From: Moraxella sp. TY6
Lineage (GTDB): Bacteria; Pseudomonadota; Gammaproteobacteria; Pseudomonadales; Moraxellaceae
Direction of reading: 5' to 3'
NCBI RefSeq assembly: GCF_048551375.1
Contig: NZ_JBLYZJ010000006.1
Span: 80,051-144,050 of the forward strand
Length of the DNA: 64,000 nt
The notes below the pieces were generated by a model that saw only the letters and a list, made by a program, of their open reading frames with translations, searched no databases and had not been told where the DNA came from. Shown here piece after piece: positions 40,505-54,905 of this stretch; position 1 is the stretch's first letter, and each line of letters begins with the position of its first letter. The position numbers were made by a program, and so were the translations under genes.

Positions 40505-41761
40505 TCAAACACCACTGGCTTTTTGGGTAAAAAACTTCATCAAAGGTTTAAACTTACTCACCGCACTCACGCCTTCACTACGCAGGTGCTGAATGGGGCG
40601 AAATTGATTCCCAAAAATCCAATTTATCCCAGAAAAACTGTGCATCATCATGGCATTATGGGCATAGCGTACTCGCTCATAGCGTTGTAGCGTGGCAAAT
40701 TCCGCCCAGTTTTTACCACCACTTCGCTCAAAGTCGTTTTGCAAGATTTTGACCAAATCAATAACATCCAGCATTCCCAAGTTTAGACCTTGCCCTGCCA
40801 ATGGATGTACGCCATGCCCTGCATCGCCAATCAACGCAAGGTTGGGTTTGACATAGCCTTTGGCATGTTGGGCATTGAGTGGAAAACTGGCAATCGACTC
40901 GATATCAGTAATATCACCCAACGCATAGCCACTGGCAAAGGCAAGTTCTTTTGCCAAATCTTGCGGTGATAAGGTCAGCAAATCGAGTGCTGTATTAGTC
41001 GGTAATGACCACACCACCGACTGCCAATGTTGTGGGTCGGCTTTATCGCTGTCAGTGACATCGGCAAGCGGTAATAATGCCAAAATACTGTCGCTCAAAA
41101 ACACTTGGCGAGCGGTGGCGTTATGCGGTTGTTCGGTCTTTATCGCACAGCAAATGGCGGTCTGATGATATGCCAAGGTATCTAGCCCAATGCCTGCGGT
41201 TTGGCGTACCATCGAGCCTCGCCCATCCGCCCCAATCAATAGCTTGGCGGTGTGGCTATCACCATTATCTAAGGTGACACGGTAGCCATCGCCTAGCCAG
41301 TCAAGGCTAGTGACTTTATGCCCTGCAATATGGGTCAGATATGGCGTTACGTCTTCATCATCAAACCCATCATACAGAGATTTTTCGATGATAAACGGCT
41401 CGACCATACTGCCGAGTAGTTGTGGGTTTTGTTGAGGATTGTCCTGCTCATTGTCTAGGTCGCCAAATTTGAGTTCGCCAACGCCATTGGTTTGCCATAC
41501 TTGCATTTGGGTGTAGTCGGCTTTGCGTTGGGATTCGGCGATACGTTGCCATGCACCGACTTGTTTGAGCAGTCCGATACTGGCAAGGCTAAGGGCATAC
41601 ACACGAGCGTCACGGCGGGTGAGTTTGTCCGCCCAGTCGTTTGGGGATAGCTTGGGGCGTGCGTCAATGAGGGTAACAGGGTGTTTGTTTTGGGCGAGGC
41701 TTAAGGCAAGTGTCGCTCCGACAATGCCACCGCCGATGATGAGAGTTGAGTTTTTTTTCAT
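40505..41761 (-). CDS. FAD-dependent UbiH/UbiF/UbiI-family hydroxylase
   Basis: 418 aa; GGGIVGATLALSL FAD-binding fold and UbiH-family length; A8 run immediately after the ATG. Confidence 0.85.
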   Translation of the reverse strand: MKKNSTLIIGGGIVGATLALSLAQNKHPVTLIDARPKLSPNDWADKLTRRDARVYALSLASIGLLKQVGAWQRIAESQRKADYTQMQVWQTNGVGELKFGDLDNEQDNPQQNPQLLGSMVEPFIIEKSLYDGFDDEDVTPYLTHIAGHKVTSLDWLGDGYRVTLDNGDSHTAKLLIGADGRGSMVRQTAGIGLDTLAYHQTAICCAIKTEQPHNATARQVFLSDSILALLPLADVTDSDKADPQHWQSVVWSLPTNTALDLLTLSPQDLAKELAFASGYALGDITDIESIASFPLNAQHAKGYVKPNLALIGDAGHGVHPLAGQGLNLGMLDVIDLVKILQNDFERSGGKNWAEFATLQRYERVRYAHNAMMMHSFSGINWIFGNQFRPIQHLRSEGVSAVSKFKPLMKFFTQKASGV

Positions 41762-41972: not shown

Positions 41973-42275
41973 ATGATTGATTTAATGAGTTCGTTGTCGA
42001 TTTTTATGGTTTATCCGTTTATTGCGTTTATCATTGCAGTTGTATTTTGGGGCTTGGGAATTGGGCTAAAAAGCAAGGTGTTAAAGGTCGCAAGCCTAGC
42101 ATGGGTGGGCTATGGCATTTGGGAATATTTGATGTATTTTAAGGTGCTTTGTAGTGGCGACTGCAATATTCGTATTGATTTATTGGTGATTTTTCCAATT
42201 TTACTGCTGTTTAGTGTTGGGGCGGTTGGTTATGTGATTTATCGAAAAACTAGAGGTAATCAAAAAATTCGTTAA
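41973..42275 (+). CDS. small hypothetical membrane protein (3 TM)
   Basis: AT-rich ORF, hydrophobic segments; 130 bp upstream of the 1042-aa gene on the same strand. Confidence 0.3.
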   Translation: MIDLMSSLSIFMVYPFIAFIIAVVFWGLGIGLKSKVLKVASLAWVGYGIWEYLMYFKVLCSGDCNIRIDLLVIFPILLLFSVGAVGYVIYRKTRGNQKIR

Positions 42276-42406
42276 ACCAAGAAATAGTCAAAGGGAATTT
42301 TGGACATTATTCGTGTGGTAGTCTATAAATTTCAGTTATTTGGTAGTATGATTACAAAATAGTTTTCATAATTACTCTAACAGATTAACGACACAAGGAA
42401 TAACCC

Positions 42407-45400
42407 ATGAGTGCAGGATTAATCAGACATCTAAAAGCCAAAACCGAACAAGATAGCAATACGGCTATTTTGCTTGCTCAATGGGAATTTGACCAAAAAC
42501 TGGTTGGCAAGGCTTTGGAAAATATTGCTAGCTATTATCCACACTTTAGCAGTCATAATGCTTCACATTCACACCAAATTCTTGTCAATATTGAGCGTTT
42601 ATTAGATAAAAATATAATTGAATTATCGGCTACAGATACTTGGCTGTTACTCGAATCTGCCTATTGGCATGATGTGGGTATGTTATTTAATAGCCAACAG
42701 GTTCAGGACATTATCAAAGATAGTAAGTTTAAAGAATATGTCGAAACCCTTGCCAATGATAATAGCCAAGATTTACACGAATTTGCGAAAAAATGGCATG
42801 ATACTGACTGGAAACAAGCCTTGGCAATGTATGACCATCCACAAAAAGGCGTGGAAAAATACCGCCAAATGGTGGCTGAATGGTATCGCCGTGACCATGC
42901 TAAAAACTCTCAACGTGTGGTCGCTGACCCTTTTGAAATTCTTGGTATTAACTCACCCCGCACCGAACTATTACCAAAACGCATTTATCGTTATTTAGGG
43001 CAAATTTGTCTTGCACATGGCACAAGTTTTGAGAGTGTCATGTCACAACTGCCCTATCGCCAAACAGGTATGGGAACAGAAAACTGCCATCCTCGATTTG
43101 TGGCGTGTATGCTACGCTTGGGCGATTTGTTTGATATTGATGATAACCGATTTTGCCCTGTTATGATGAAACAAACAACCATGCCAAAATTGAGTGAGGC
43201 TCATCATCATAAGCATTTGGCGATTCGTGAGTTTCAGCTTGATAACAAGACGGTCAGTATCACCGCAGAATGTGAAGATGAAGATGCGTATATCCAAACG
43301 CAGATGTGGTTTGGCTGGATTAAAGAAGAGATGCAAAATCAAATGTCACAATGGAAAAACATTGTGCCGAACCGTTCCTTTGGTCTGCTACCTACGATTC
43401 AAAAGCTTGATGTGGTGATGACAAGTTCTAAGATTTTGCTCAATAACAAGCCAATGAAGTTTGGGCTGGATGAGAAAAGTGCGATTGAGCTGTTGCAAGG
43501 TAGAAATCTGTACGATGATGAGACCAATATCTACCGTGAGCTGATTCAAAATGCGGTGGATGCGACCTATCTGCGAGTATGGATTGAGCATGGTATGCGT
43601 AAGCGTGAGATTACCGATGACTTCCATCCGTTTCATCCAAAGTTTCAAGAGATTTTGGAGAATTATCCGATTACCATTGATTTTGTAAAATTGGAAGATG
43701 AGCCGAATTCTGATTATAGTATTTGGCAGTTTAGTTTGACGGACAATGGGACTGGCATTAGCCTGAAAGATTTGGAGTATATGCAGAAGATTGCAGGGTC
43801 TAGTCGCAATGTTGAGAAAAAACGTTTAATGGCTGATATGCCTGTGTGGATGCGTCCGTCTGGTGCGTTTGGGATTGGGTTACATAGTGCGTTTTTGTTG
43901 CTAGATAAAGGCAGAGAGGAAGATAACAAGATTGTTCTTGAGACAAAGAGTATTGCGGATAATGCGTCTTATCGGATTGAGATGACTTCGCCAATTTCGG
44001 GGAATCAGGGGTACTGTTTTATTGAAAAATTAAGTGATGAAGAAAATTTAAAAAGGGATTATGGTACTAAGCTCAACATTAATATAAGGGTAGAAAGAAA
44101 AGGTAGAAGATATTTTTATCTATCTGATGAGTTTAAAGAAAACATATTAATAAATAAATACCAAAAAGAATTTGACACGTTAAAAACGCCAATTTTTGAT
44201 TTTTCTAAAATATTATTCATTACAAGAAAAATTCGTGAAAAAATCATTACAAATATCTCTGTACCAATAGAATTTAAGCATCTTGAAAGCATTAATAATA
44301 CAAATGGGAATGCTATCACGAATCCAATTAATAGCTTCACTCCCAATCATATACTTCGCATTTGGTATGGTAAAGAAAACTTATATGTATCTTTAATCAA
44401 TCTAAGCCAAGTTGACAGTCTTACATTTTTTGAGAGTAGCTTTAGATGTATGACTTATTTTAAAGGACAAGAAATAGACAGATTATCCGTCAATATTATT
44501 CCTTCGGACATGGATTTTTTCGGCTTTAATGCTAAAGAATCTCTTCAAATAGATAGAAATAAATGGAGCAAAAACTTCTTGGAAACTCTTGAAGAAAAAA
44601 ATTATTTCTTTGAATTGAATAAAAATATTATTATTGATAATTACTCTGATATTAAAGAGCATCTCTCAAATAGTAAAGTTATGAGTGCCTTACTTTACTA
44701 TTACAAGATAGAATACCTAGACAACAGTATTAAAGACTTATGGAAAGAGATGAAATTAACTACAAGTCATAATGTTAAATATAGTGCAAATCTTGATATT
44801 AGTTACAAAGGTTTAATAAGCTTAGACCAATTTACAATAGAAGAAGACACTACAGTAAATGGAAATTATATTAACAATATTAAAATCGAAGATTTACCGA
44901 ACAATACTATTGTAGTATCAAACTTGAACAATCATAACTATTTTTATGAAAATTTTGTAAATGAATGGTATAAATCAGGTGGAGATATTATTGAAACTAA
45001 AAGTGAAGAAATTAGAACCTTTAAGTTAAGAAAAATTAATCAAACTAATAATTTACTTTTTGAACATCTGAAAAATCAATTAAAGAGTAATGTTACAAGA
45101 ATAATATTAGATTCAGATGAGATAAGAGATTATAGTTTGAATTACTTGGAGGATATTATTTGTTTCAGTGAAGCTCATGAGAACTTTCTAGGAAATAATA
45201 CAAACCGTGAAAAGGTCTTCTTATCACCTTTTGCTTTCTTTAGAGATGATGAAAAAGCCATAATAGCTGTAGCAAATTTTGAATTTTTGTGTCAATCTGT
45301 GTTCGATGAGCTAAAGAAGAATGGAAAATATATCAGATTAGATTCAATCAAAGAAAAATATGAAAAATTCATTTCTCAAGCTGATGAATTAATGAAAAAT

Positions 45401-45535
45401 ATTCCAGAATGGGTTGAAGCAAGAGAGATGGGGAGAGACTTCATACCAAAAGATATTCGAGAGCTTGAAGATATGTTTAAACCATCAGATGAAGTTTTAA
45501 AGGCTTACGAATCTGAAAAAGAAAAAAGAAAATAA
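42407..45535 (+). CDS. 1042-aa HD-domain + GHKL (Hsp90/MORC-like) ATPase protein with AT-rich C-terminal extension; candidate defence or stress protein
   Basis: HD motif HSHQILVNIERLL..YWHDVGM (~42.56-42.68 kb); Bergerat-fold boxes RELIQNAVDA (43.53 kb), DNGTGIS (43.74 kb), GAFGIGLHSAF (43.86 kb); GC falls from about 42% to about 28% after ~43.95 kb. Confidence 0.8.
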   Translation: MSAGLIRHLKAKTEQDSNTAILLAQWEFDQKLVGKALENIASYYPHFSSHNASHSHQILVNIERLLDKNIIELSATDTWLLLESAYWHDVGMLFNSQQVQDIIKDSKFKEYVETLANDNSQDLHEFAKKWHDTDWKQALAMYDHPQKGVEKYRQMVAEWYRRDHAKNSQRVVADPFEILGINSPRTELLPKRIYRYLGQICLAHGTSFESVMSQLPYRQTGMGTENCHPRFVACMLRLGDLFDIDDNRFCPVMMKQTTMPKLSEAHHHKHLAIREFQLDNKTVSITAECEDEDAYIQTQMWFGWIKEEMQNQMSQWKNIVPNRSFGLLPTIQKLDVVMTSSKILLNNKPMKFGLDEKSAIELLQGRNLYDDETNIYRELIQNAVDATYLRVWIEHGMRKREITDDFHPFHPKFQEILENYPITIDFVKLEDEPNSDYSIWQFSLTDNGTGISLKDLEYMQKIAGSSRNVEKKRLMADMPVWMRPSGAFGIGLHSAFLLLDKGREEDNKIVLETKSIADNASYRIEMTSPISGNQGYCFIEKLSDEENLKRDYGTKLNINIRVERKGRRYFYLSDEFKENILINKYQKEFDTLKTPIFDFSKILFITRKIREKIITNISVPIEFKHLESINNTNGNAITNPINSFTPNHILRIWYGKENLYVSLINLSQVDSLTFFESSFRCMTYFKGQEIDRLSVNIIPSDMDFFGFNAKESLQIDRNKWSKNFLETLEEKNYFFELNKNIIIDNYSDIKEHLSNSKVMSALLYYYKIEYLDNSIKDLWKEMKLTTSHNVKYSANLDISYKGLISLDQFTIEEDTTVNGNYINNIKIEDLPNNTIVVSNLNNHNYFYENFVNEWYKSGGDIIETKSEEIRTFKLRKINQTNNLLFEHLKNQLKSNVTRIILDSDEIRDYSLNYLEDIICFSEAHENFLGNNTNREKVFLSPFAFFRDDEKAIIAVANFEFLCQSVFDELKKNGKYIRLDSIKEKYEKFISQADELMKNIPEWVEAREMGRDFIPKDIRELEDMFKPSDEVLKAYESEKEKRK

Positions 45536-45577: not shown

Positions 45578-46828
45578 TTAACTTTTCAAACCCATTGCAA
45601 AAGTAGCGACCATCGGCTTCACAAACGGCACTTTATCAAAGGCAACCAGACCAACATTACGGGCAAACTTCAACACTGGATTGTTAATAGTAAAGCCATA
45701 CACCACCGTATCGCAGAACAACTCAACCCTCTTTTGGTCGGCTTTACGACGTTTCTCATAACCTTGTAACATCTCTGCTTTGGCGATATCTTCCCCACGC
45801 ATGGCTTGCTGAGCGATTAATCGGGCAAGCGTATCAGCATCTCGCATACACAGATTAAAGCCCTGCCCTGCCACAGGGTGCAAGGTATGCGCTGCATTGC
45901 CCATGATGACACAGCGACCCACCACTTGACGCTCAGCAAGCACCTTGACCAACGGGTACGCCCCACGCTTGCCAGCCTTGACGAATTTGCCTGCTCGCTT
46001 GCCAAACGCCTGCTGAATGCTGTGTAAAAAATACGCCTCGTCTGTGAGATATCGGCTCTCTTCGCCTTTTTTACAGACCCAAACCACAGAGCGACGATAT
46101 CCCTTTTGGGCTTGACGACCATCACCTTCAAAATCAGTCAATGGTAATACAGCGACCAAGCCTTGCTCGGTAAAGCGTTCTATCGCCACATGGTAATGCG
46201 GGGTATCCGTCATCACCACACCCACGATACCAACTTGATTATAGTCATGGAAACTTGAGCCAACGCTCAGTAGCTTGCGACATGGCGAATTTTGTCCATC
46301 ACAAGCCACAAGCATATCTGCAGTGAGTTGTTGGGTATCTTGAACGTCATTCTTTTTATAATCAACCTTGACCTGTCTATCCGTTTGCTTAATAGCCGTC
46401 ACACTTGCTCCTGTAATCAGGGTAATCAGCGGACTATCCTGCACAGCCATGAGTAGCTTTCGCCCTAGCCAAGCGTTTTCCATGACTTGACCAAAGCTTT
46501 CGACTTTTTCTTCATGCTTATTTAGGGTGGCTTTGCCAAAGCTGTCTTGTTCGCTGATTTGCACTTGATCGATACGACAGGCATGGCTTTGTAAGTCATC
46601 CCAAAGCCCGATACTGTCATAAATCTGTACAGTACGGCGGGACAGTGCGATATTACGGCTGTCAAATTGCTGGCGGTCAAGGTCGTCATCGGGCGAAATG
46701 GTGGGGTATTTGATTTTTTCGATTAGCGTGCTTTTGATGCCTTTATTCGCCAATAATAAGGCAAACGATAAGCCGACATTGCCACCGCCAATGATGGCAA
46801 CGGTTTGGGAGGTGATGGGATTATTCAT
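45578..46828 (-). CDS. FAD-dependent UbiH/UbiF/UbiI-family hydroxylase (paralog)
   Basis: 416 aa; IIGGGNVGLSFALLL and overall UbiH-family similarity. Confidence 0.85.
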   Translation of the reverse strand: MNNPITSQTVAIIGGGNVGLSFALLLANKGIKSTLIEKIKYPTISPDDDLDRQQFDSRNIALSRRTVQIYDSIGLWDDLQSHACRIDQVQISEQDSFGKATLNKHEEKVESFGQVMENAWLGRKLLMAVQDSPLITLITGASVTAIKQTDRQVKVDYKKNDVQDTQQLTADMLVACDGQNSPCRKLLSVGSSFHDYNQVGIVGVVMTDTPHYHVAIERFTEQGLVAVLPLTDFEGDGRQAQKGYRRSVVWVCKKGEESRYLTDEAYFLHSIQQAFGKRAGKFVKAGKRGAYPLVKVLAERQVVGRCVIMGNAAHTLHPVAGQGFNLCMRDADTLARLIAQQAMRGEDIAKAEMLQGYEKRRKADQKRVELFCDTVVYGFTINNPVLKFARNVGLVAFDKVPFVKPMVATFAMGLKS

Positions 46829-47211: not shown

Positions 47212-48402
47212 ATGAAAACACAAATTCCCGCAATTTTGGCATTAACCGATGGCACAGTTTTTAAGGGCATTAGCATCGGTGCAAGCGGACACACCGTTGG
47301 CGAAGTGGTGTTTAACACCGCCATGACAGGCTATCAAGAAATCCTGACCGACCCTAGCTATGCCGAGCAAATCGTCACCCTCACCTACCCACACATCGGC
47401 AATACAGGCACGAATGCCGAAGACACCGAATCTGGGCGTATCAAAAAGGTATGGGCAAACGGCTTGATTATCCGTGATTTGACCATGGTAACTAGCAACT
47501 TCCGCTCAACCGAATCTTTGACCGATTATTTGTTCAATAACAACACGGTCGCCATTGCCGATATCGACACTCGCAAGCTCACTCGCCTACTCCGTACCAA
47601 AGGGGCAATGAACGGCTGTATCATGACCGCAGACGCTGACGGCAATCTTGATGAGGCGAAAGCGGTGGCACTTGCTCAAAGTTTTGCAGGCATTAAAGGC
47701 ATGGACTTGGCAAAAGTCTGCTGTGATAAAGACGGCTTTGAGTGGACGCAAGGCTCTTGGGAATTGGTTAGCCCTGAAGTGAGTAGCACTTGTGGACGTT
47801 TTAAAGAACTTGGCACGGATATCGAAAAACGCTTTAACATCGTGGCGTATGATTTTGGCATTAAAACCAATATCTTGCGTATGCTTGTGGATAGAGGCTG
47901 TCATGTCACCGTTGTCCCTGCCCAGACCCCAGTTGCGGATGTTTTAAAACACAATCCAGATGGTATTTTCTTGTCAAACGGTCCTGGCGACCCTGCACCT
48001 TGTACTTATGCGATTGAGGCGATTAAGCACGTCATCACCGAAACGGATATTCCGCTATTTGGGATTTGTTTGGGTCATCAGTTGCTGGCGTTGGCAAGTG
48101 GGGCGAATACGCTTAAGATGAAGTTCGGTCATCATGGGGCGAACCACCCTGTGCAAGATATTGAGAATGGTACGGTGATGATTACGTCACAGAATCATGG
48201 TTTTGCGGTGGATGAAGACAGCTTGCCAAGTAATGTAAAAGTAACGCATCGTTCGTTGTTTGATGGGTCGAATCAAGGCATTGAATTGACGAATAAGCCT
48301 GCGTTTAGTTTCCAAGGTCACCCAGAGGCAAGCCCCGGCCCGCATGACTGCTCGCCGTTGTTTGATAAATTCGCTGAGTTGATGGTGAAAGCGAAAGGTT
48401 AA
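47212..48402 (+). CDS. carA: carbamoyl-phosphate synthase small (glutaminase) subunit
   Basis: start at ATG 47212 ([19 protein letters not shown]..); GATase catalytic region ICLGHQLL. Confidence 0.95.
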
Positions 48403-48404
48403 TA

Positions 48405-48974
48405 ATGGCAATTAAATTAGACGGTTCTTGGTCGGTCGGTTATGCCTATGACAAACATATCGAACATAGCACATTTTTGGGCTATGATGACCAAGGTCGC
48501 CCTTTATTTGACACCACTCGCACCTATTATATGGGTGAGTTGATTTACCAACTCAAATATCAGCAAAAACTTGATAACATTGATAAAATCATCGATTTAT
48601 TACTCGCTCAATTTTCTAATTTTGAAAAATTTAACATGGTTGTGCCAGCACCGTTTTCCACCCCCCGATTGCACCAACCTGTTTATTTAATCGCCGAGCA
48701 GTTAGCCAAACGACTGAATATCAGTTATCAGCCGATATTGCACAAAATACAGGCAAAAATTCCACTCAAAAACTTAGCAACATTTGATGAAAAGATAGAA
48801 AATTTGTCACACAATATTGAGCTAGATAAACAAAGCAATGTTGCCAATCAAACTATTTTGCTACTAGATGATTTATTTGACAGTGGAGCAACGCTCGATT
48901 CTGCCACACAACTACTGATGCAAGCAGGGGCAAAAGAAGTAAATGTCTTGGTACTTACCAAAACTCGAGGATAA
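48405..48974 (+). CDS. phosphoribosyltransferase (PRTase)-domain protein, ShosT-like
   Basis: 189 aa; PRPP-binding loop ILLLDDLFDSGATL; ATG 2 nt after the carA stop. Confidence 0.6.
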   Translation: MAIKLDGSWSVGYAYDKHIEHSTFLGYDDQGRPLFDTTRTYYMGELIYQLKYQQKLDNIDKIIDLLLAQFSNFEKFNMVVPAPFSTPRLHQPVYLIAEQLAKRLNISYQPILHKIQAKIPLKNLATFDEKIENLSHNIELDKQSNVANQTILLLDDLFDSGATLDSATQLLMQAGAKEVNVLVLTKTRG

Positions 48975-48977
48975 ACC

Positions 48978-49541
48978 ATGCAACCGATATTTTTTTCAGG
49001 TTCTCGAAGTTTAGTCAGCTTACCAGCTATGGTACAGCAACGTATTTTTGACAATATTTTGCAAAAAAACTTCCCTATTGTCATTGGGGATGCTGATGGT
49101 GCAGATAGCACATTACAAGCGTTTTTTGCGACCCAATACTATGATTTGGTGAAAGTTTTTTGTGCAGGTGGCAAATGCCGTAATAATATAGGTAATTGGC
49201 AAATTCAGACCATTGCAAGCTCTGCCAAAGGTCGAGCCTTTTATACCGCTAAAGATGTAGCAATGGCAAATGTCGCTAATTATGGGTTTGTGCTTTGGGA
49301 TGGTCAAAGCATTGGTTCGCTTAATAATATTGCTGAGTTATTAAAGCAAAACAAACCATCATTGGTCTATTTTGAGCCTAATCAACAGTTTATAAAAGTT
49401 GTATCAGAACAGGACTTGAATGATTTATTACAAATCGCTGATAAAGGTTTGGCAAATACCATTATCCAAAAGGGTTCAACATATTTAAAGCAACTATCAA
49501 AGAATGGTAATTTTTATCAACAGAATAGTTTGTGGAATTAA
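48978..49541 (+). CDS. DprA/Smf-like SLOG Rossmann-domain protein, ShosA-like
   Basis: 187 aa; FFSGSRSL..PIVIGDADGADS..CAGG pattern typical of DprA/LOG-type SLOG domains; RBS GAGGA. Confidence 0.55.
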   Translation: MQPIFFSGSRSLVSLPAMVQQRIFDNILQKNFPIVIGDADGADSTLQAFFATQYYDLVKVFCAGGKCRNNIGNWQIQTIASSAKGRAFYTAKDVAMANVANYGFVLWDGQSIGSLNNIAELLKQNKPSLVYFEPNQQFIKVVSEQDLNDLLQIADKGLANTIIQKGSTYLKQLSKNGNFYQQNSLWN

Positions 49542-49784
49542 AGGAAAATACTGTTTCCACCTTCGTAAATGTAGTTGCCAAAACGTATTTTTATAGTTAA
49601 CACTGAATTATAGTGAACAAGGTCGTTCGTGGTGAGCTTGTCGAACCATAACGACCGCCACCCTTCGACAGGCTCAGGGCGAGCGGTGTTCATTATGATT
49701 TCGGATTCACTATAACAAAGTGGCTAATTGAATTTGAGTATGATGAATTTTATTTGGATTAATAATTGGGTAAATGAATAAGCA

Positions 49785-50900
49785 ATGACCGAAATTAAAA
49801 TCAAAGACTTGCGTGGTGTCGGTGACGTTGAGCTACAACTTGACGATAGCAAACGTGTCTTTGTTTTTTTTGGGTCAAATGGTGTTGGGAAAACGAAAAC
49901 GTTAGAAAGCTTGTTCCTTTTTCTTTTTTATAAAACTACTGGTTTTAAATTTGAATTAGAAAAAGATAATATCTTTAATTTTTTTAAAAACATAACATAT
50001 TCTAATAAAAAACTGAAATTCGTTGATTATTTTTTCAGAGATAGTAATGCTCTTTTTTTTGATTATCACTATTTAAAAGATTTAGTACCCTATTTTGGCT
50101 ATCAAGCTATTGCCTATTTAGGTGCAAATGAGAGAAGTAAAATCTTAAAAAGTTCTGATAGTCATAGTTTAAACAATGGATTATCGGATAGAAAAAATAA
50201 TTATATATTATCTATACACAACGCAATTAATGACCAAACATTAACTAATTTTGCGATGAATCAAAATATTCATCTTTGGTTTACCGAGCGAGCCAAATCC
50301 GTCAATCCCTACCAAAAAGAAGAAGACAATCGCAAAGTTGATATTGATACGGTTTTAAATGCATTAAACATTTTAGACAGTCGCATTGAAAAAACGCTAA
50401 AAATTGATGGTGACGGCAATGTGTTTTTAACCATTGAAGGACAAGAACGAGAGTTAAGCGAATTAAGCTCTGGTTTTATCTCGGTGGTAAAAATCATTCA
50501 ATCCATAATTTCAGCTTATTCCGCCTTTACCAATGCCACCGATTTATTAAACGTCAAAGGCGTGGTATTGATTGACGAAATTGAAAGCCATTTACACATC
50601 GAATGGCAAACCAAAATCGTACCGACTTTAAAAAATTTGTTTCCCAATACCACATTCTATATCGCTACCCATTCGCCATTAGTATTATCACAGTTAGACG
50701 AAGGCGAAGCTTATTTATTAAAGCGTGATGATGACAATGTTGTAAGAAGTTCGGTAATCAACTCGCCTAACACTCGATTACTTGAAAATGTTTTGCAAGA
50801 TGCTTTTGATGTCGATTTGAACCAATTAAAACGTGACAATATGGAACATATCGACCAAAGTAAAGCTAAACAAAAATTACTAGCACTATTAAACAGATAA
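49785..50900 (+). CDS. ABC-type AAA_21 ATPase (AT-rich)
   Basis: 371 aa; Walker A GSNGVGKT, VVLIDEIESHLH Walker B/D-loop, ATHSP H-loop; about 30% GC. Confidence 0.7.
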   Translation: MTEIKIKDLRGVGDVELQLDDSKRVFVFFGSNGVGKTKTLESLFLFLFYKTTGFKFELEKDNIFNFFKNITYSNKKLKFVDYFFRDSNALFFDYHYLKDLVPYFGYQAIAYLGANERSKILKSSDSHSLNNGLSDRKNNYILSIHNAINDQTLTNFAMNQNIHLWFTERAKSVNPYQKEEDNRKVDIDTVLNALNILDSRIEKTLKIDGDGNVFLTIEGQERELSELSSGFISVVKIIQSIISAYSAFTNATDLLNVKGVVLIDEIESHLHIEWQTKIVPTLKNLFPNTTFYIATHSPLVLSQLDEGEAYLLKRDDDNVVRSSVINSPNTRLLENVLQDAFDVDLNQLKRDNMEHIDQSKAKQKLLALLNR

Positions 50901-50911
50901 CAGGTGAAGCG

Positions 50912-51364
50912 ATGACTCAAAAATCTGTTTTAGTGGATGCTAATATTTTAATTGCCATGATTGATGGTGATAATACAAACCCAAATCACGTTGAAGCAAA
51001 ACAAAAATTTAATGATTTGATAGAGCAAAATGTTGCCATTGCCATTACGCCTTTGATTCGTTATGAAGTGTTGCGTGGTATAAAAAGCATTTCGATTGAT
51101 GAAGCCCAAGCGATTTTAGACGATTTTGTTGAGTTTAACATCACGGATAAAGAAGCCAATCCATCCGCTAAAATTTTCCATTTCAGCCGAAGTGATGATT
51201 TTTTGGCAAAAAATACAGGGATTAAATTAGACAAACAAAACTTTGACGTATTTCATTACGTTGTTGCCAAGATTCGTCATTTAGAACTGGTCAATGTGAA
51301 TCAAAAAGACTTTAACAAAATTGAAAATGTGATTGATTTAATGCCAAATTCCCCATTTGAGTAA
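50912..51364 (+). CDS. PIN-domain (VapC-like) nuclease
   Basis: 150 aa; [11 protein letters not shown]-terminal acidic motif, later conserved E, and [10 protein letters not shown]-terminal PIN motif. Confidence 0.6.
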
Positions 51365-51384
51365 TTGAGAGTGAGAGAGTAACC

Positions 51385-54300
51385 ATGCCAAAACGTACAG
51401 ATATCAAATCCATCTTAATCATCGGTGCAGGTCCAATCGTCATCGGACAAGCCTGTGAATTCGACTACTCAGGTGCTCAAGCCTGTAAAGCCTTGCGTGA
51501 AGAAGGCTACCGAGTCATTCTCGTCAACTCAAACCCAGCCACCATCATGACCGACCCTGTCATGGCGGATGCCACCTACATCGAGCCGATTACATGGCAA
51601 ACCGTTGAGCGTATCATCGAAAAAGAACGCCCAGATGCCATCTTGCCAACCATGGGCGGACAGACCGCACTTAACTGTGCGTTAGACCTTGATAAACATG
51701 GCGTATTGGCAAAATACGGCTGTGAGCTAATCGGTGCGACCAAAGATGCCATCGAAAAAGCCGAAGACCGTGACCTATTCGACAAAGCCATGAAAAAAAT
51801 CGGCTTAGAATGTCCTCGTGCCGAAGTCGCAGGCAATATGCAAGAAGCCTTTGAAATCCAAGCCAAAGTCGGCTTCCCTTGTATCATTCGTCCATCATTC
51901 ACCATGGGCGGTTCGGGCGGTGGTATCGCTTACAACCGTGACGAATTTGTCGAGATTTGCGAACGTGGTTTTGACCTGTCGCCGACCAAACAGCTATTGA
52001 TTGACGAAAGCTTAATCGGCTGGAAAGAATACGAAATGGAAGTCGTGCGTGACAAAAACGACAACTGTATCATCATCTGTTCAATTGAAAACTTCGACCC
52101 AATGGGCGTACACACAGGCGACTCGATTACCGTTGCCCCTGCTCAGACTTTGACCGACAAAGAATACCAAATCATGCGAAATGCCTCGATTGCGGTATTG
52201 CGTGAGATTGGCGTGGAAACAGGCGGTTCAAACGTCCAGTTTGGCATCGACCCAAAAACAGGGCGTATGGTTGTCATCGAGATGAACCCTCGTGTTAGCC
52301 GTTCTTCTGCGTTAGCGTCTAAGGCGACTGGCTTTCCGATTGCCAAAATCGCTGCCAAACTCGCCGTTGGTTACACGCTTGATGAACTCAAAAACGACAT
52401 CACAGGCGGTAAAACCCCAGCCAGTTTTGAGCCATCAATTGACTATGTGGTGACCAAAGTACCTCGTTTTAACTTTGAAAAATTCCCACAAGCCGATAAC
52501 ACGCTATCAACGCAAATGAAGTCAGTCGGTGAAGTCATGGCGATTGGGCGTAATTTCCAAGAGTCGATGCAAAAAGCCTTGCGTGGGCTTGAGATTGGCG
52601 TGAATGGTTTTGATGAGTATTTGGATTTAAACCAAGATACTGACAGCATTCGTAGTACACTGAAAGTTAAACTAAAAACCCCGACCCCAGAGCGTATTTT
52701 CTACGTTGCCGATGCGTTCCGCTTTGGCATGAGTGTGGATGAGGTGTTTAACTTTACCAACATTGACCCTTGGTTCTTGGTACAAATCGAAGACATCGTT
52801 AAAACCGAAAAACAAGTCAAAGAAACGGGCTTTGGTGGTTTGACAGCCGATGTGTTACGTGCGTTTAAACGTAAAGGTTTATCAGATTTACGCCTTGCTA
52901 CCTTACTTGGTATTTCACAAAAACAACTGCGTAAAAAGCGTTGGGATTTGGGCGTTTATCCTGTTTATAAACGTGTCGATACTTGTGCCGCCGAGTTTGA
53001 AACTTCAACCGCTTATATGTACTCAAGCTATGACGATGAGTGCGAAGCACAGCCGACCAATAACAAAAAAATCATGGTCATCGGTGGTGGCCCAAACCGT
53101 ATCGGACAAGGCATTGAGTTTGATTATTGCTGTGTGCATGCGGCATTGGCAATGCGTGAAGACGGTTATGAAACCATCATGGTGAACTGTAACCCAGAAA
53201 CCGTTTCGACCGATTATGATACCTCTGACCGTCTATATTTTGAGCCGATTACCCTTGAAGATGTACTAGAAATCGTACGTATCGAAAAACCTGAAGGCGT
53301 GATTGTGCAGTATGGTGGTCAAACGCCATTGAAACTTGCTCGTGCCTTAGAAGCCGCAGGTGTGCATATCATCGGTACTAGCCCAGATGCCATCGACCGT
53401 GCCGAAGACCGTGAACGCTTCCAACACATGATTAACCAGTTAGGCTTTACTCAGCCACCCAATGCGTTGGCGACCAGTACCGAAGACGGTATTGTCAAAG
53501 CCGAAAAAGTCGGCTATCCGCTGGTGGTGCGTCCTTCGTATGTGTTGGGCGGTCGTGCCATGGAAATCGTGTATAACGAAAGCGAACTCCGCCGTTACTT
53601 GCGTGAGGCGGTACAAGCCTCGAATGAAGCCCCTGTGCTACTTGACCGCTTCCTTGATGATGCGATTGAGGTCGATGTGGATTGTATCTCGGACGGCACA
53701 AACGTGGTGATTGGCGGTATCATGCAACATATCGAACAGGCAGGCGTGCATTCTGGCGACTCGGCTTGCTCGATTCCGCCTTATTCGCTCGGTCAAGAGA
53801 TTTGTGATGTCATGCGTGAGCAAACGGTGGCAATGGCAAAAGAGCTTGGCGTGGTCGGCTTGATGAACGTGCAATATGCGGTCAAAGACGGCGTGGTGTA
53901 TATCCTTGAGGTCAATCCTCGTGCCTCTCGTACCGTGCCTTTTGTGTCAAAATGTATCGGCACATCGCTTGCCCAAGTCGCCGCTCGCTGTATGGCAGGC
54001 AAAACCTTGGCAGAGCAAGGCTTTACCCAAGAGGTGATTCCAAGTTTCTTTGCGGTCAAAGAGGCAGTATTCCCATTTGCCAAGTTTCCGGGGGTTGACC
54101 CAATCCTTAGCCCAGAGATGAAATCAACGGGTGAAGTCATGGGCGTGGGTCAGACCTTTGGCGAAGCGTATTATAAAGCTATCATCGGTAGTAATGACCG
54201 CTTACCTGGTTTGCCAGTTGATGGTGAAGTGAAAAAAGTCTTCCTATCGGTGCGTGATAGTGATAAAGCCAACTTAATTCCGATTGCCAAACAATTCATC

Positions 54301-54627
54301 GAATATGGCTTTGGATTGGTTGCCACAGGCGGTACGCATCAAGTATTAAGCGATGCTGGATTGGCATGTGAAAAAGTCAACAAAGTCAATGAAGGTCGCC
54401 CACATATTGTTGATGCCATCAAAAATGGTGAAATTGCCATTGTGGTAAACACTACTGAAGGCAAACAAGCCCACGAAGATTCGTTCTCAATTCGCCGTAG
54501 TGCCTTGCAACACAAAGTGTTTAATGTGACAACGCTCAATGCGGCGGCGGCGGTGGCGGAAGCCTATAAAGTACAATTGCCGTTTGAAGTATATAAATTG
54601 CAAGAATTGCACGCTCAAGCGAAATAA
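51385..54627 (+). CDS. carB: carbamoyl-phosphate synthase large subunit
   Basis: 1080 aa; duplicated ATP-grasp halves, unmistakable CarB sequence. Confidence 0.97.
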
Positions 54628-54650
54628 GCGTTCATTGTACTTTTCTAAAT

Positions 54651-54684
54651 AAAAAGCCAATGATTGATATTATTGGCTTTTTCG
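54651..54684 (+). terminator. rho-independent terminator after carB
   Basis: aaaagccaatgattgatattattggcttttt. Confidence 0.65.
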
Positions 54685-54905
54685 ATGGATTGAAACAATA
54701 ATCAGTTGCATTTTATCCAAAAATTGCTACAATAGCCCCATTAAACGGTTTGACCGTTCACAGCGAAATTTAACGACCCTGCTAGGTGGTAATACTGCCT
54801 AGCATGGTTTTTTTTATACGTAAGAAAACTATGCAGAAAAGCCACGCAACATTTTTTGCCACCTTGCGTATATTTTGACCTGTATATTTTTGACAAGGAA
54901 ATCTT

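Follow-up and report, generated by a model that had tools for sequence, protein, structure and literature searches.

Two defence-like gene pairs between carA and carB of Moraxella sp. TY6

We analysed a 64,000-nucleotide stretch of the Moraxella sp. TY6 genome (contig NZ_JBLYZJ010000006.1, positions 80,051 to 144,050; hereafter the window), in which carA and carB, the genes of the two carbamoyl-phosphate synthase subunits, are parted by four open reading frames (ORF1 to ORF4). ORF1 and ORF2 are predicted to encode a phosphoribosyltransferase (PRTase) and a DprA/SLOG-fold protein, and ORF3 and ORF4 a PtuA-family ABC ATPase and a VapC-like PIN nuclease. The two pairs are probably autonomous conflict modules, of the anti-phage or toxin-antitoxin type, that ride inside the carAB transcription unit. 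Defence islands usually lie beside mobile elements or between core genes; here such genes stand between the subunit genes of one enzyme, and defence-like cargo occupies this same operon in three bacterial families. We regard the locus as the more interesting result: an operon-embedded slot in three families, with a cassette-swapping ATPase.

Two gene pairs in an enlarged gap

The carA stop codon (TAA, 48400-48402) and the carB start codon (ATG, 51385) leave a gap of 2,982 bp (48403-51384). We surveyed 77 other gamma- and betaproteobacterial loci that, among the matches listed, have both genes on the contig, and in 74 of them the gap measures -5 to 260 bp. The three exceptions are two Psychrobacter loci (692 and 1,012 bp) and one Sulfuricellaceae metagenome-assembled genome (MAG; 544 bp). 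The four Acinetobacter surveyed all have 13-15 bp, and some Psychrobacter have 162 bp. Hence, the window gap is far outside the norm, and the canonical carAB spacing of tens of bp is not found here. The GC content falls from 48.1% in carA to 37.7, 35.6, 32.2, and 32.9% in ORF1 to ORF4, reaches 22.9% in the central part of ORF3, and is 47.8% in carB and also about 48% in greA. The genes are tightly packed, with 2 nt from the carA stop to ORF1, 20 nt from the ORF4 stop to the carB ATG, and a 243-bp spacer between ORF2 and ORF3 as the sole long junction, the remaining ones being 2-20 nt. An earlier note on this DNA, made from the sequence alone, had taken carA and carB to be normally contiguous and had described four low-GC ORFs between them, the first beginning 2 nt past carA and the last ending 20 nt ahead of carB; the survey, the composition (32-38% GC versus 48% for carA and carB), and the junctions agree with it on each count. 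Direct or inverted repeats marking insertion ends were sought at the island flanks, where just short, chance-level matches were found.

ORF1 matches PADLOC PsyrT (2.6e-22), NCBIfam ComF (2.4e-13), PADLOC ShosT (2.6e-12), and Pfam Pribosyltran (2.2e-8), and weakly Pfam UPRTase (0.0043). Its match to the PsyrT profile takes in the C-terminal PRTase part alone (positions 539-685 of 689), and that to the ShosT profile takes in positions 90-211 of 237. The phosphoribosyl pyrophosphate (PRPP) loop motif, read from the sequence as LLLDDLFDSGAT, has its aspartate pair intact. Domain and profile searches of ORF1 detected no N-terminal pyrophosphatase, no helicase, and no extra domain. ORF2 itself gave no Pfam or PADLOC match in profile searches of the window protein, but its family of 15 protein-database clusters includes nine that match Pfam DprA and eight that match PADLOC ShosA, and the motif GDA(D/N)GxD is conserved. 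In Foldseek searches with an AlphaFold2 (AF2) model of ORF2 (predicted local distance difference test score, pLDDT, 91.9), the best PDB match was E. coli ShosA (8zva; E 2.8e-4, template modelling score about 0.53), followed by H. pylori DprA and then by ThsA-SLOG and YpsA. The Rossmann fold begins at residue 4, leaving no space for a 94-aa SAM domain, and C-terminal helices are present.

ShosTA, a toxin-antitoxin system, acts against phage (PMC11961720, PMC12961424). ShosT has 424 aa, with a pyrophosphatase/hydrolase domain at residues 1-164 plus a PRTase, whereas ShosA, of at least 313 aa, has an N-terminal SAM domain, a DprA Rossmann domain, and a disordered C-terminal tail; the toxicity of ShosT needs D331/D332, the equivalents of the aspartate pair in the ORF1 PRPP loop (PMC11961720). 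The window pair resembles ShosTA and PsyrTA in having a PRTase with an intact PRPP loop followed, in the same gene order, by a DprA/SLOG-fold protein, and distant relatives of the pair are found on prophage contigs. Of the features that mark ShosTA, the PRTase with PRPP-loop aspartates is thus present in ORF1 and, by predicted fold, the DprA-like Rossmann domain in ORF2. However, ORF1 (189 aa) has neither the pyrophosphatase domain of ShosT nor the RecQ-like helicase of PsyrT, and ORF2 (187 aa) is without ShosA's SAM domain and, in the window, falls below detection by the ShosA hidden Markov model (HMM). Because the published ShosT and ShosA are longer and carry additional domains, ORF1-ORF2 is not a canonical ShosTA; judged by its sequence, it is a putative stripped-down relative of the ShosTA/PsyrTA class.

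The second pair is of a different kind. ORF3 matches PADLOC PtuA (1.2e-35) and Pfam AAA_21/AAA_15, its family profile aligns with Septu PtuA (8ee4) at 4.7e-27 across residues 1-350, and its top 50 Foldseek matches are without exception PtuA proteins, belonging to Septu or to the retrons Ec78, Eco7, and Ec83. Sequence and alignment place a Walker A motif (GSNGVGKT), a signature motif (LSSGF), a Walker B motif (VVLIDEIE), and an H-loop (ATHS), followed by conserved C-terminal helices. ORF4 matches Pfam PIN (3.4e-8) and NCBIfam VapC (3.3e-7), and the acidic tetrad D9, E52, D112, and D133 is invariant among 24 homologues. In the Moraxella, Psychrobacter, and Hafnia loci the PIN gene is always directly 3' of the ATPase gene. 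No PIN was found in a search of viral contigs, and a plasmid search gave a single weak match, in a mislabelled N. gonorrhoeae chromosome.

ORF3 is assigned to the PtuA family by HMM, by PDB-sequence profile, and by fold, and as in Septu a nuclease gene lies immediately downstream. The conserved C-terminal helices are a further likeness, as PtuA's C-terminal extension is the binding site of PtuB (PMC12819146). The PtuA of retrons touches the regulating multicopy single-stranded DNA with a helix-loop-helix insertion and with loops that belong to its helix-grip fold (PMC12819146). Septu and retron PtuAB are reported to cut tRNA-Tyr (PMC13096335, PMC12673091). ORF3 differs from its Septu counterparts in size (371 aa versus 465-550), in its hypervariable insert, which is exchanged between strains, in its location inside the carAB operon, and in its partner, a VapC-like PIN instead of an HNH nuclease. 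Pfam, PADLOC, and NCBIfam profiles matched no HNH nuclease in the gene downstream of ORF3, and we therefore rejected Septu proper, in which PtuA would be followed by an HNH PtuB. The nearest described architecture is that of HEC-03 (Hma-embedded candidate 03), in which an ABC ATPase is paired with a VapC-like PIN and both genes are required to protect E. coli (bioRxiv 10.1101/2024.01.29.577857); its ATPase, HEC-03A, is a 461-aa DUF3696 protein (Payne et al., bioRxiv 10.1101/2024.01.29.577857). Both are two-gene units with the ATPase followed by the PIN, and both are embedded in another gene cluster, although HEC-03 sits in Hma defence systems and ORF3-ORF4 in a biosynthetic operon. ORF4 also resembles the toxin of VapBC in being a VapC-like PIN with four acidic residues, but there is no small VapB antitoxin and the upstream partner is instead a 371-aa ABC ATPase. 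ORF3-ORF4 is thus a candidate Septu-like variant in which a PtuA-family ATPase is paired with a PIN nuclease.

We compared nine ATPases and found that the N-terminus, with Walker A, and the C-terminal two-thirds are conserved, and that residues ~46-160 are not. Protein identity in this cassette is 17-32% between strains, M. osloensis included, compared with 91-98% in the N-terminal and 76-97% in the C-terminal flank. In DNA comparisons inside M. osloensis and inside Psychrobacter, flank identity is 98-100%, and the centre, at 25-50%, is at the random level. One M. osloensis cassette resembles a Psychrobacter allele (45% identity) more than it does any cassette of its own species. By our reading the cassette falls into the insert-element region, with Walker A on one side and the signature motif on the other, and the AF2 confidence is low in this segment. 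The mosaic pattern suggests repeated replacement of a putative recognition module, and the naturally swapped sensor cassettes offer ready material on phage recognition by ABC-ATPase defence systems.

Comparison with relatives separates the two pairs in age. Within the genus Moraxella the comparison was made by exact-protein look-ups and lies outside M. catarrhalis, M. bovis, and similar species. The ATPase-PIN pair stands between carA and carB in all eight informative loci of the M. osloensis clade, including the complete genomes CP068109 and AP031595 along with a number of assembled contigs; the ATPase there has 364-379 aa and starts 50 bp after carA, and the 150-aa PIN ends 20 bp before carB. 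The window carA is 89-90% identical to that of M. osloensis (and 100% to an 'unclassified Moraxella' protein), carB is 94% identical, and the PIN, at 86-87%, is close to the 89% of carA. Psychrobacter submarinus and its relatives also carry ATPase-PIN in the gap, with starts and stops that overlap or abut, and a Moraxella sp. MAG has the order carA, an uncharacterised 207-aa gene, Fic, ATPase, PIN, carB. Since Hafnia alvei carries the pair in an unrelated context, we regard ATPase-PIN as an autonomous module; its GC content is 31-36% in every host examined. ORF1, ORF2, and the repeat in the 243-bp spacer are specific to the window lineage within the clade loci compared, and the two genes and their spacer stand where M. 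osloensis has its 50-bp carA-ATPase spacer. On alignment the latter is not homologous to the window sequence upstream of the ATPase, and the exact insertion junction is for this reason not reconstructable.

The gap content thus consists of two layers, an old resident ATPase-PIN pair and a recent addition of ORF1-ORF2 with the repeat. The earlier note had described a single island wedged into the operon, a picture contradicted by the lineage-wide residence of ATPase-PIN (8 of 8 M. osloensis-clade loci, another Moraxella sp., and Psychrobacter spp.). It had also named the finding that would refute its reading, namely the same four genes between carA and carB throughout the genus with native composition; two of the four genes are indeed common in the clade, but their composition is non-native (31-36% GC). 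Its proposal that genes in such a place would be hard to lose is consistent with the long retention of ATPase-PIN, whereas the 162-bp gaps of Psychrobacter and the 13-15-bp gaps of Acinetobacter indicate that absence or loss is possible.

The carA-carB gap in other bacteria

The closest relatives of ORF1-ORF2 (PRTase 48-52% and SLOG 51-55% identical) likewise lie between carA and carB. Their hosts are N. meningitidis, N. dentiae, N. gonorrhoeae, and Cricetibacter osteomyelitidis (Pasteurellaceae), and another Neisseriaceae lineage with PRTase-SLOG in the gap is represented by 66 collection blocks. The gap is therefore a recurrent cargo slot in Moraxellaceae, Neisseriaceae, and Pasteurellaceae, which are naturally transformable mucosal or environmental lineages. 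Its occupants vary: in Psychrobacter a type IV restriction enzyme, Mrr (PADLOC 6.7e-67), begins 2 nt past the carA stop, and another Psychrobacter gap holds an uncharacterised 183-aa ORF that overlaps the carA stop. The cargo is AT-rich in every host examined, as in N. meningitidis, where it has 30-32% GC versus 56-57%.

The N. gonorrhoeae gap of 3.29 kb has the order carA, glyoxalase fragment, DUF559, tandem repeats, PRTase, SLOG, carB, and in strain 2022NG-0032 the PRTase-SLOG pair (48% and 52% identical to the window proteins) adjoins carB. This gap is like that of the window in that kilobases of variable DNA holding a PRTase-SLOG pair part carA from carB; it differs in carrying DUF559, a glyoxalase fragment, and tandem repeats and in having no ATPase-PIN. 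In N. meningitidis the SLOG protein is shortened at its C-terminus (152 aa versus 182 aa in N. gonorrhoeae). A 1995 paper in Microbiology by Lawson, Billowes and Dillon reportedly described the Neisseria carA-carB gap as a large, variable, repeat-rich intergenic sequence and not as a slot for defence or toxin-antitoxin cargo. That 'intergenic sequence' is open to reinterpretation as a ShosTA-like pair with other conflict genes.

Outside the gap, two loci have PRTase-SLOG downstream of hrpA, one from a Pasteurellaceae strain (Bisgaard taxon 10/6), the other an unassigned metagenome contig. More distant relatives (34-48% identity) occur in other contexts, including 22 viral contigs. Of 80 metagenome loci ~66, and of 22 loci on viral contigs 21, have a PRTase gene immediately ahead of the SLOG gene.

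Over its first 300 nt, carB shows 76-81% identity among the three families, with exact runs of ~20 nt, and flank-anchored transfer is on this account conceivable but would be inefficient. A broader proposal would make the gap a conserved, operon-embedded immune slot of the three transformable families, to which recombination at the conserved carA and carB ends brings cargo from distant hosts. The carAB promoter, regulated by nucleotides and arginine, would express and stabilise this cargo and so tie abortive-infection toxins that act on PRPP or RNA to the nucleotide status of the cell, and the PtuA-like ATPase-PIN would diversify there by exchange of its recognition cassette, with allele classes shared across genera; we consider this doubtful, if worth entertaining.

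Several smaller observations concern these loci. In the Cricetibacter gap (locus L098, 6553-7940) PRTase-SLOG is followed by a PhzF-family gene with native-like composition (46% GC) and by a gene for an 8xMP membrane protein (28% GC). The hrpA-linked pair of the Pasteurellaceae strain (locus L188, 6851-7464) adjoins a HigB/HigA-like toxin-antitoxin pair (Gp49 plus helix-turn-helix). Two PLSDB 'plasmids' of 2.17 Mb, NZ_CP119142.1 (locus L216) and NZ_CP119140.1, are evidently N. gonorrhoeae chromosomes, almost unannotated, and the gap in both contains two ~260-bp tandem copies (L216, 4500-4757 and 4781-5038).

Expression, proposed mechanism, and competing explanations

We read carA, the cargo, and carB as one operon because the genes share a strand, the junctions are short, there is no internal terminator, and a strong terminator follows carB. 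A + strand scan of 48403-51384 for intrinsic terminators gave no convincing candidate, the weak ones being within shuffle expectation in total, in line with the earlier note, which had seen no terminator hairpin in the island. Folding indicates that the PIN-carB junction is unstructured, and Shine-Dalgarno-like motifs can be read in the sequence ahead of ORF1, ORF2, ORF4, and carB. The simplest model has transcription start at the carA promoter and run on through the cargo, from which we infer co-transcription, and it is plausible that carB is expressed by this read-through.

The repeat in the ORF2-ORF3 spacer is a palindrome with a perfect stem that folds at -52.7 kcal/mol (z = -7.2) and has no U-tract. 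It is single-copy within the window, and copies of 83-90% identity lie in unannotated regions of 21 Moraxella plasmids, for which reason we regard it as a native dispersed repeat. It looks like a genus-specific repeat of the miniature inverted-repeat transposable element (MITE) or repetitive extragenic palindromic (REP) kind. Rfam searches of the whole window at the gathering threshold, and of the spacer at E <= 1, returned no credible family. The palindrome may act as an RNA hairpin, a pause site, or a processing site. In M. osloensis the carA-ATPase spacer (locus L083, 9192-9247) contains a small hairpin followed by U6 (-8.5 kcal/mol), which could be a weak attenuator between carA and ATPase-PIN-carB.

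We propose the following working model. The PtuA-family ATPase and the VapC-like PIN would form the first module, with a Septu-like logic in which the PIN replaces the HNH PtuB. The ATPase oligomer would keep the PIN RNase inactive until the hypervariable insert (aa ~46-160) senses a phage cue, which would free or activate the PIN; the active PIN may then cleave tRNA or rRNA and so arrest the infected cell. The second, more recent module would be a minimal pair of the ShosTA/PsyrTA type, in which the PRTase toxin uses up PRPP and disturbs nucleotide metabolism and the DprA-fold protein counters it. Transcripts that start at the carA promoter probably read through into both modules, and carB would then depend on transcription across them. 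The model raises the question of a link between nucleotide metabolism and the expression of immune genes.

Homology, predicted fold, and context support a defence-like reading, and from them we infer the defence function, the toxin and antitoxin roles, and the RNA targets. The earlier note had likewise seen defence- or toxin-like cargo here, a view strengthened by the ShosT/PsyrT-type PRTase HMM matches, the ShosA/DprA fold, the PtuA-family ATPase, and the VapC-like PIN with intact catalytic residues. Several points weigh against two conflict modules carried on the carAB transcript. ORF2 is assigned through its relatives in the family and through a predicted fold whose Foldseek E of 2.8e-4 is modest, and with no pyrophosphatase in ORF1 and no SAM domain in ORF2 the ShosTA mechanism may not transfer. 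No PADLOC system fits the ATPase-PIN pair, which gave weak PDC-M11A and PDC-M07B matches only, and the PIN searched by itself gave weak PADLOC matches at best. Membership in HEC-03 was rejected, as the PIN and HEC-03B align at a BLASTP E of 0.59 and an hhalign probability of 0.4%; homology to HEC-03A was rejected as well, the ATPase profiles aligning over 47 columns near Walker B and the H-loop with a probability of 23%. In a promoter scan matches were no commoner than in shuffled sequence, so internal promoters are neither shown nor excluded, and the palindrome and the M. osloensis hairpin with U6 might split the transcript or modulate read-through. Finally, ATPase-PIN has long been tightly coupled to carAB in Moraxellaceae, which could instead mean a role tied to carAB.

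This last point leads to an alternative in which the cargo serves carAB or nucleotide metabolism, the PRTase being a PRPP-dependent enzyme or a PyrR-like regulator with a link to pyrimidine synthesis and ATPase-PIN processing or regulating carAB mRNA. The position of the closest PRTase-SLOG clade between carA and carB in three families would agree with this, as would the weak UPRTase match of ORF1 (0.0043) and the ATPase-PIN pairs, with translationally coupled junctions, that Moraxella and Psychrobacter alike retain there. We nonetheless consider such a service role very unlikely, given that ATPase-PIN lies outside carAB in Hafnia, as does PRTase-SLOG at its hrpA sites, in ~10 long metagenome loci, and on 22 viral contigs, while the Acinetobacter surveyed and some Psychrobacter do without the modules. 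The hypervariability of the ATPase cassette and the low GC in all hosts examined also stand against it, as do the best HMM and fold matches, which are to defence proteins, and the presence of an unrelated Mrr in the same slot.

The modules might instead be purely selfish addiction modules or decaying remnants with no present defence role, kept only since imprecise deletion would harm carA, carB, or carB expression, which is the hard-to-lose proposal of the earlier note by itself. Their location within a conserved biosynthetic operon with tight junctions and the long persistence of ATPase-PIN are compatible with this, and the truncated SLOG of N. meningitidis, together with the glyoxalase fragments and repeats of the Neisseria gap, points to some decay. 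Yet the four window ORFs are intact with conserved catalytic motifs, and the short gaps in related genomes indicate that absence or loss is feasible. The repeated replacement of the cassette between conserved flanks, with a conserved PIN, argues for ongoing selection on recognition specificity, and we judge selfish persistence or decay to be unlikely. A single four-component system acquired together, which the shared strand, close packing, and uniformly low GC might suggest, is extremely improbable and was rejected on the comparative contexts of the two pairs: M. osloensis, Psychrobacter, and Hafnia carry ATPase-PIN without PRTase-SLOG, Neisseria and Cricetibacter carry PRTase-SLOG without ATPase-PIN, another Moraxella sp. 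has an uncharacterised gene and Fic at the position of ORF1 and ORF2, and a native Moraxella repeat parts the two pairs in the window.

Feature coordinates and the wider neighbourhood

Table 1. Features of the carAB locus in window coordinates
Feature	Positions	Strand	Description
carA	47212-48402	+	396 aa; Pfam CPSase_sm_chain + GATase; carbamoyl-phosphate synthase small subunit; operon gene 1
ORF1	48405-48974	+	189 aa phosphoribosyltransferase, ShosT/PsyrT type; putative toxin
ORF2	48978-49541	+	187 aa DprA/ShosA-fold SLOG Rossmann protein; putative antitoxin
Palindromic repeat element, Moraxella-specific	49591-49712	unstranded	122 nt; within ORF2-ORF3 spacer
ORF3	49785-50900	+	371 aa PtuA-family ABC ATPase; putative sensor/regulator
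ORF3 hypervariable cassette	49920-50264	+	~aa 46-160; putative trigger-recognition insert
ORF4	50912-51364	+	150 aa VapC-like PIN nuclease; putative effector
carB	51385-54627	+	1080 aa; CPSase_L domains; carbamoyl-phosphate synthase large subunit
Intrinsic terminator after carB	54775-54815	+	11-bp stem + U8 tract; -20.6 kcal/mol, z = -5.4

Variation extends across the whole carAB-greA neighbourhood. Upstream of carA the window contains a second low-GC insert (41973-45535; ~23-31% GC) between two ubiH-like genes for flavin adenine dinucleotide (FAD) monooxygenases (40505-41761 and 45578-46828, both on the - strand). Within it lie a 100-aa ORF and a gene for a 1042-aa protein in which Pfam recognises an HD-CE domain, and PADLOC gave no match for either protein. 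In M. osloensis the monooxygenase genes are adjacent, or parted by an Adhesin_E gene alone. Downstream, carB and greA of M. osloensis are parted by a gene for a PAP2 phosphatase (loci L083, L087, and L089, 14162-14821), which is not present in the corresponding part of the window (54628-54905). In Psychrobacter PAP2 lies upstream of carA, and in a Moraxella sp. MAG (locus L183) two other genes stand between carB and greA.

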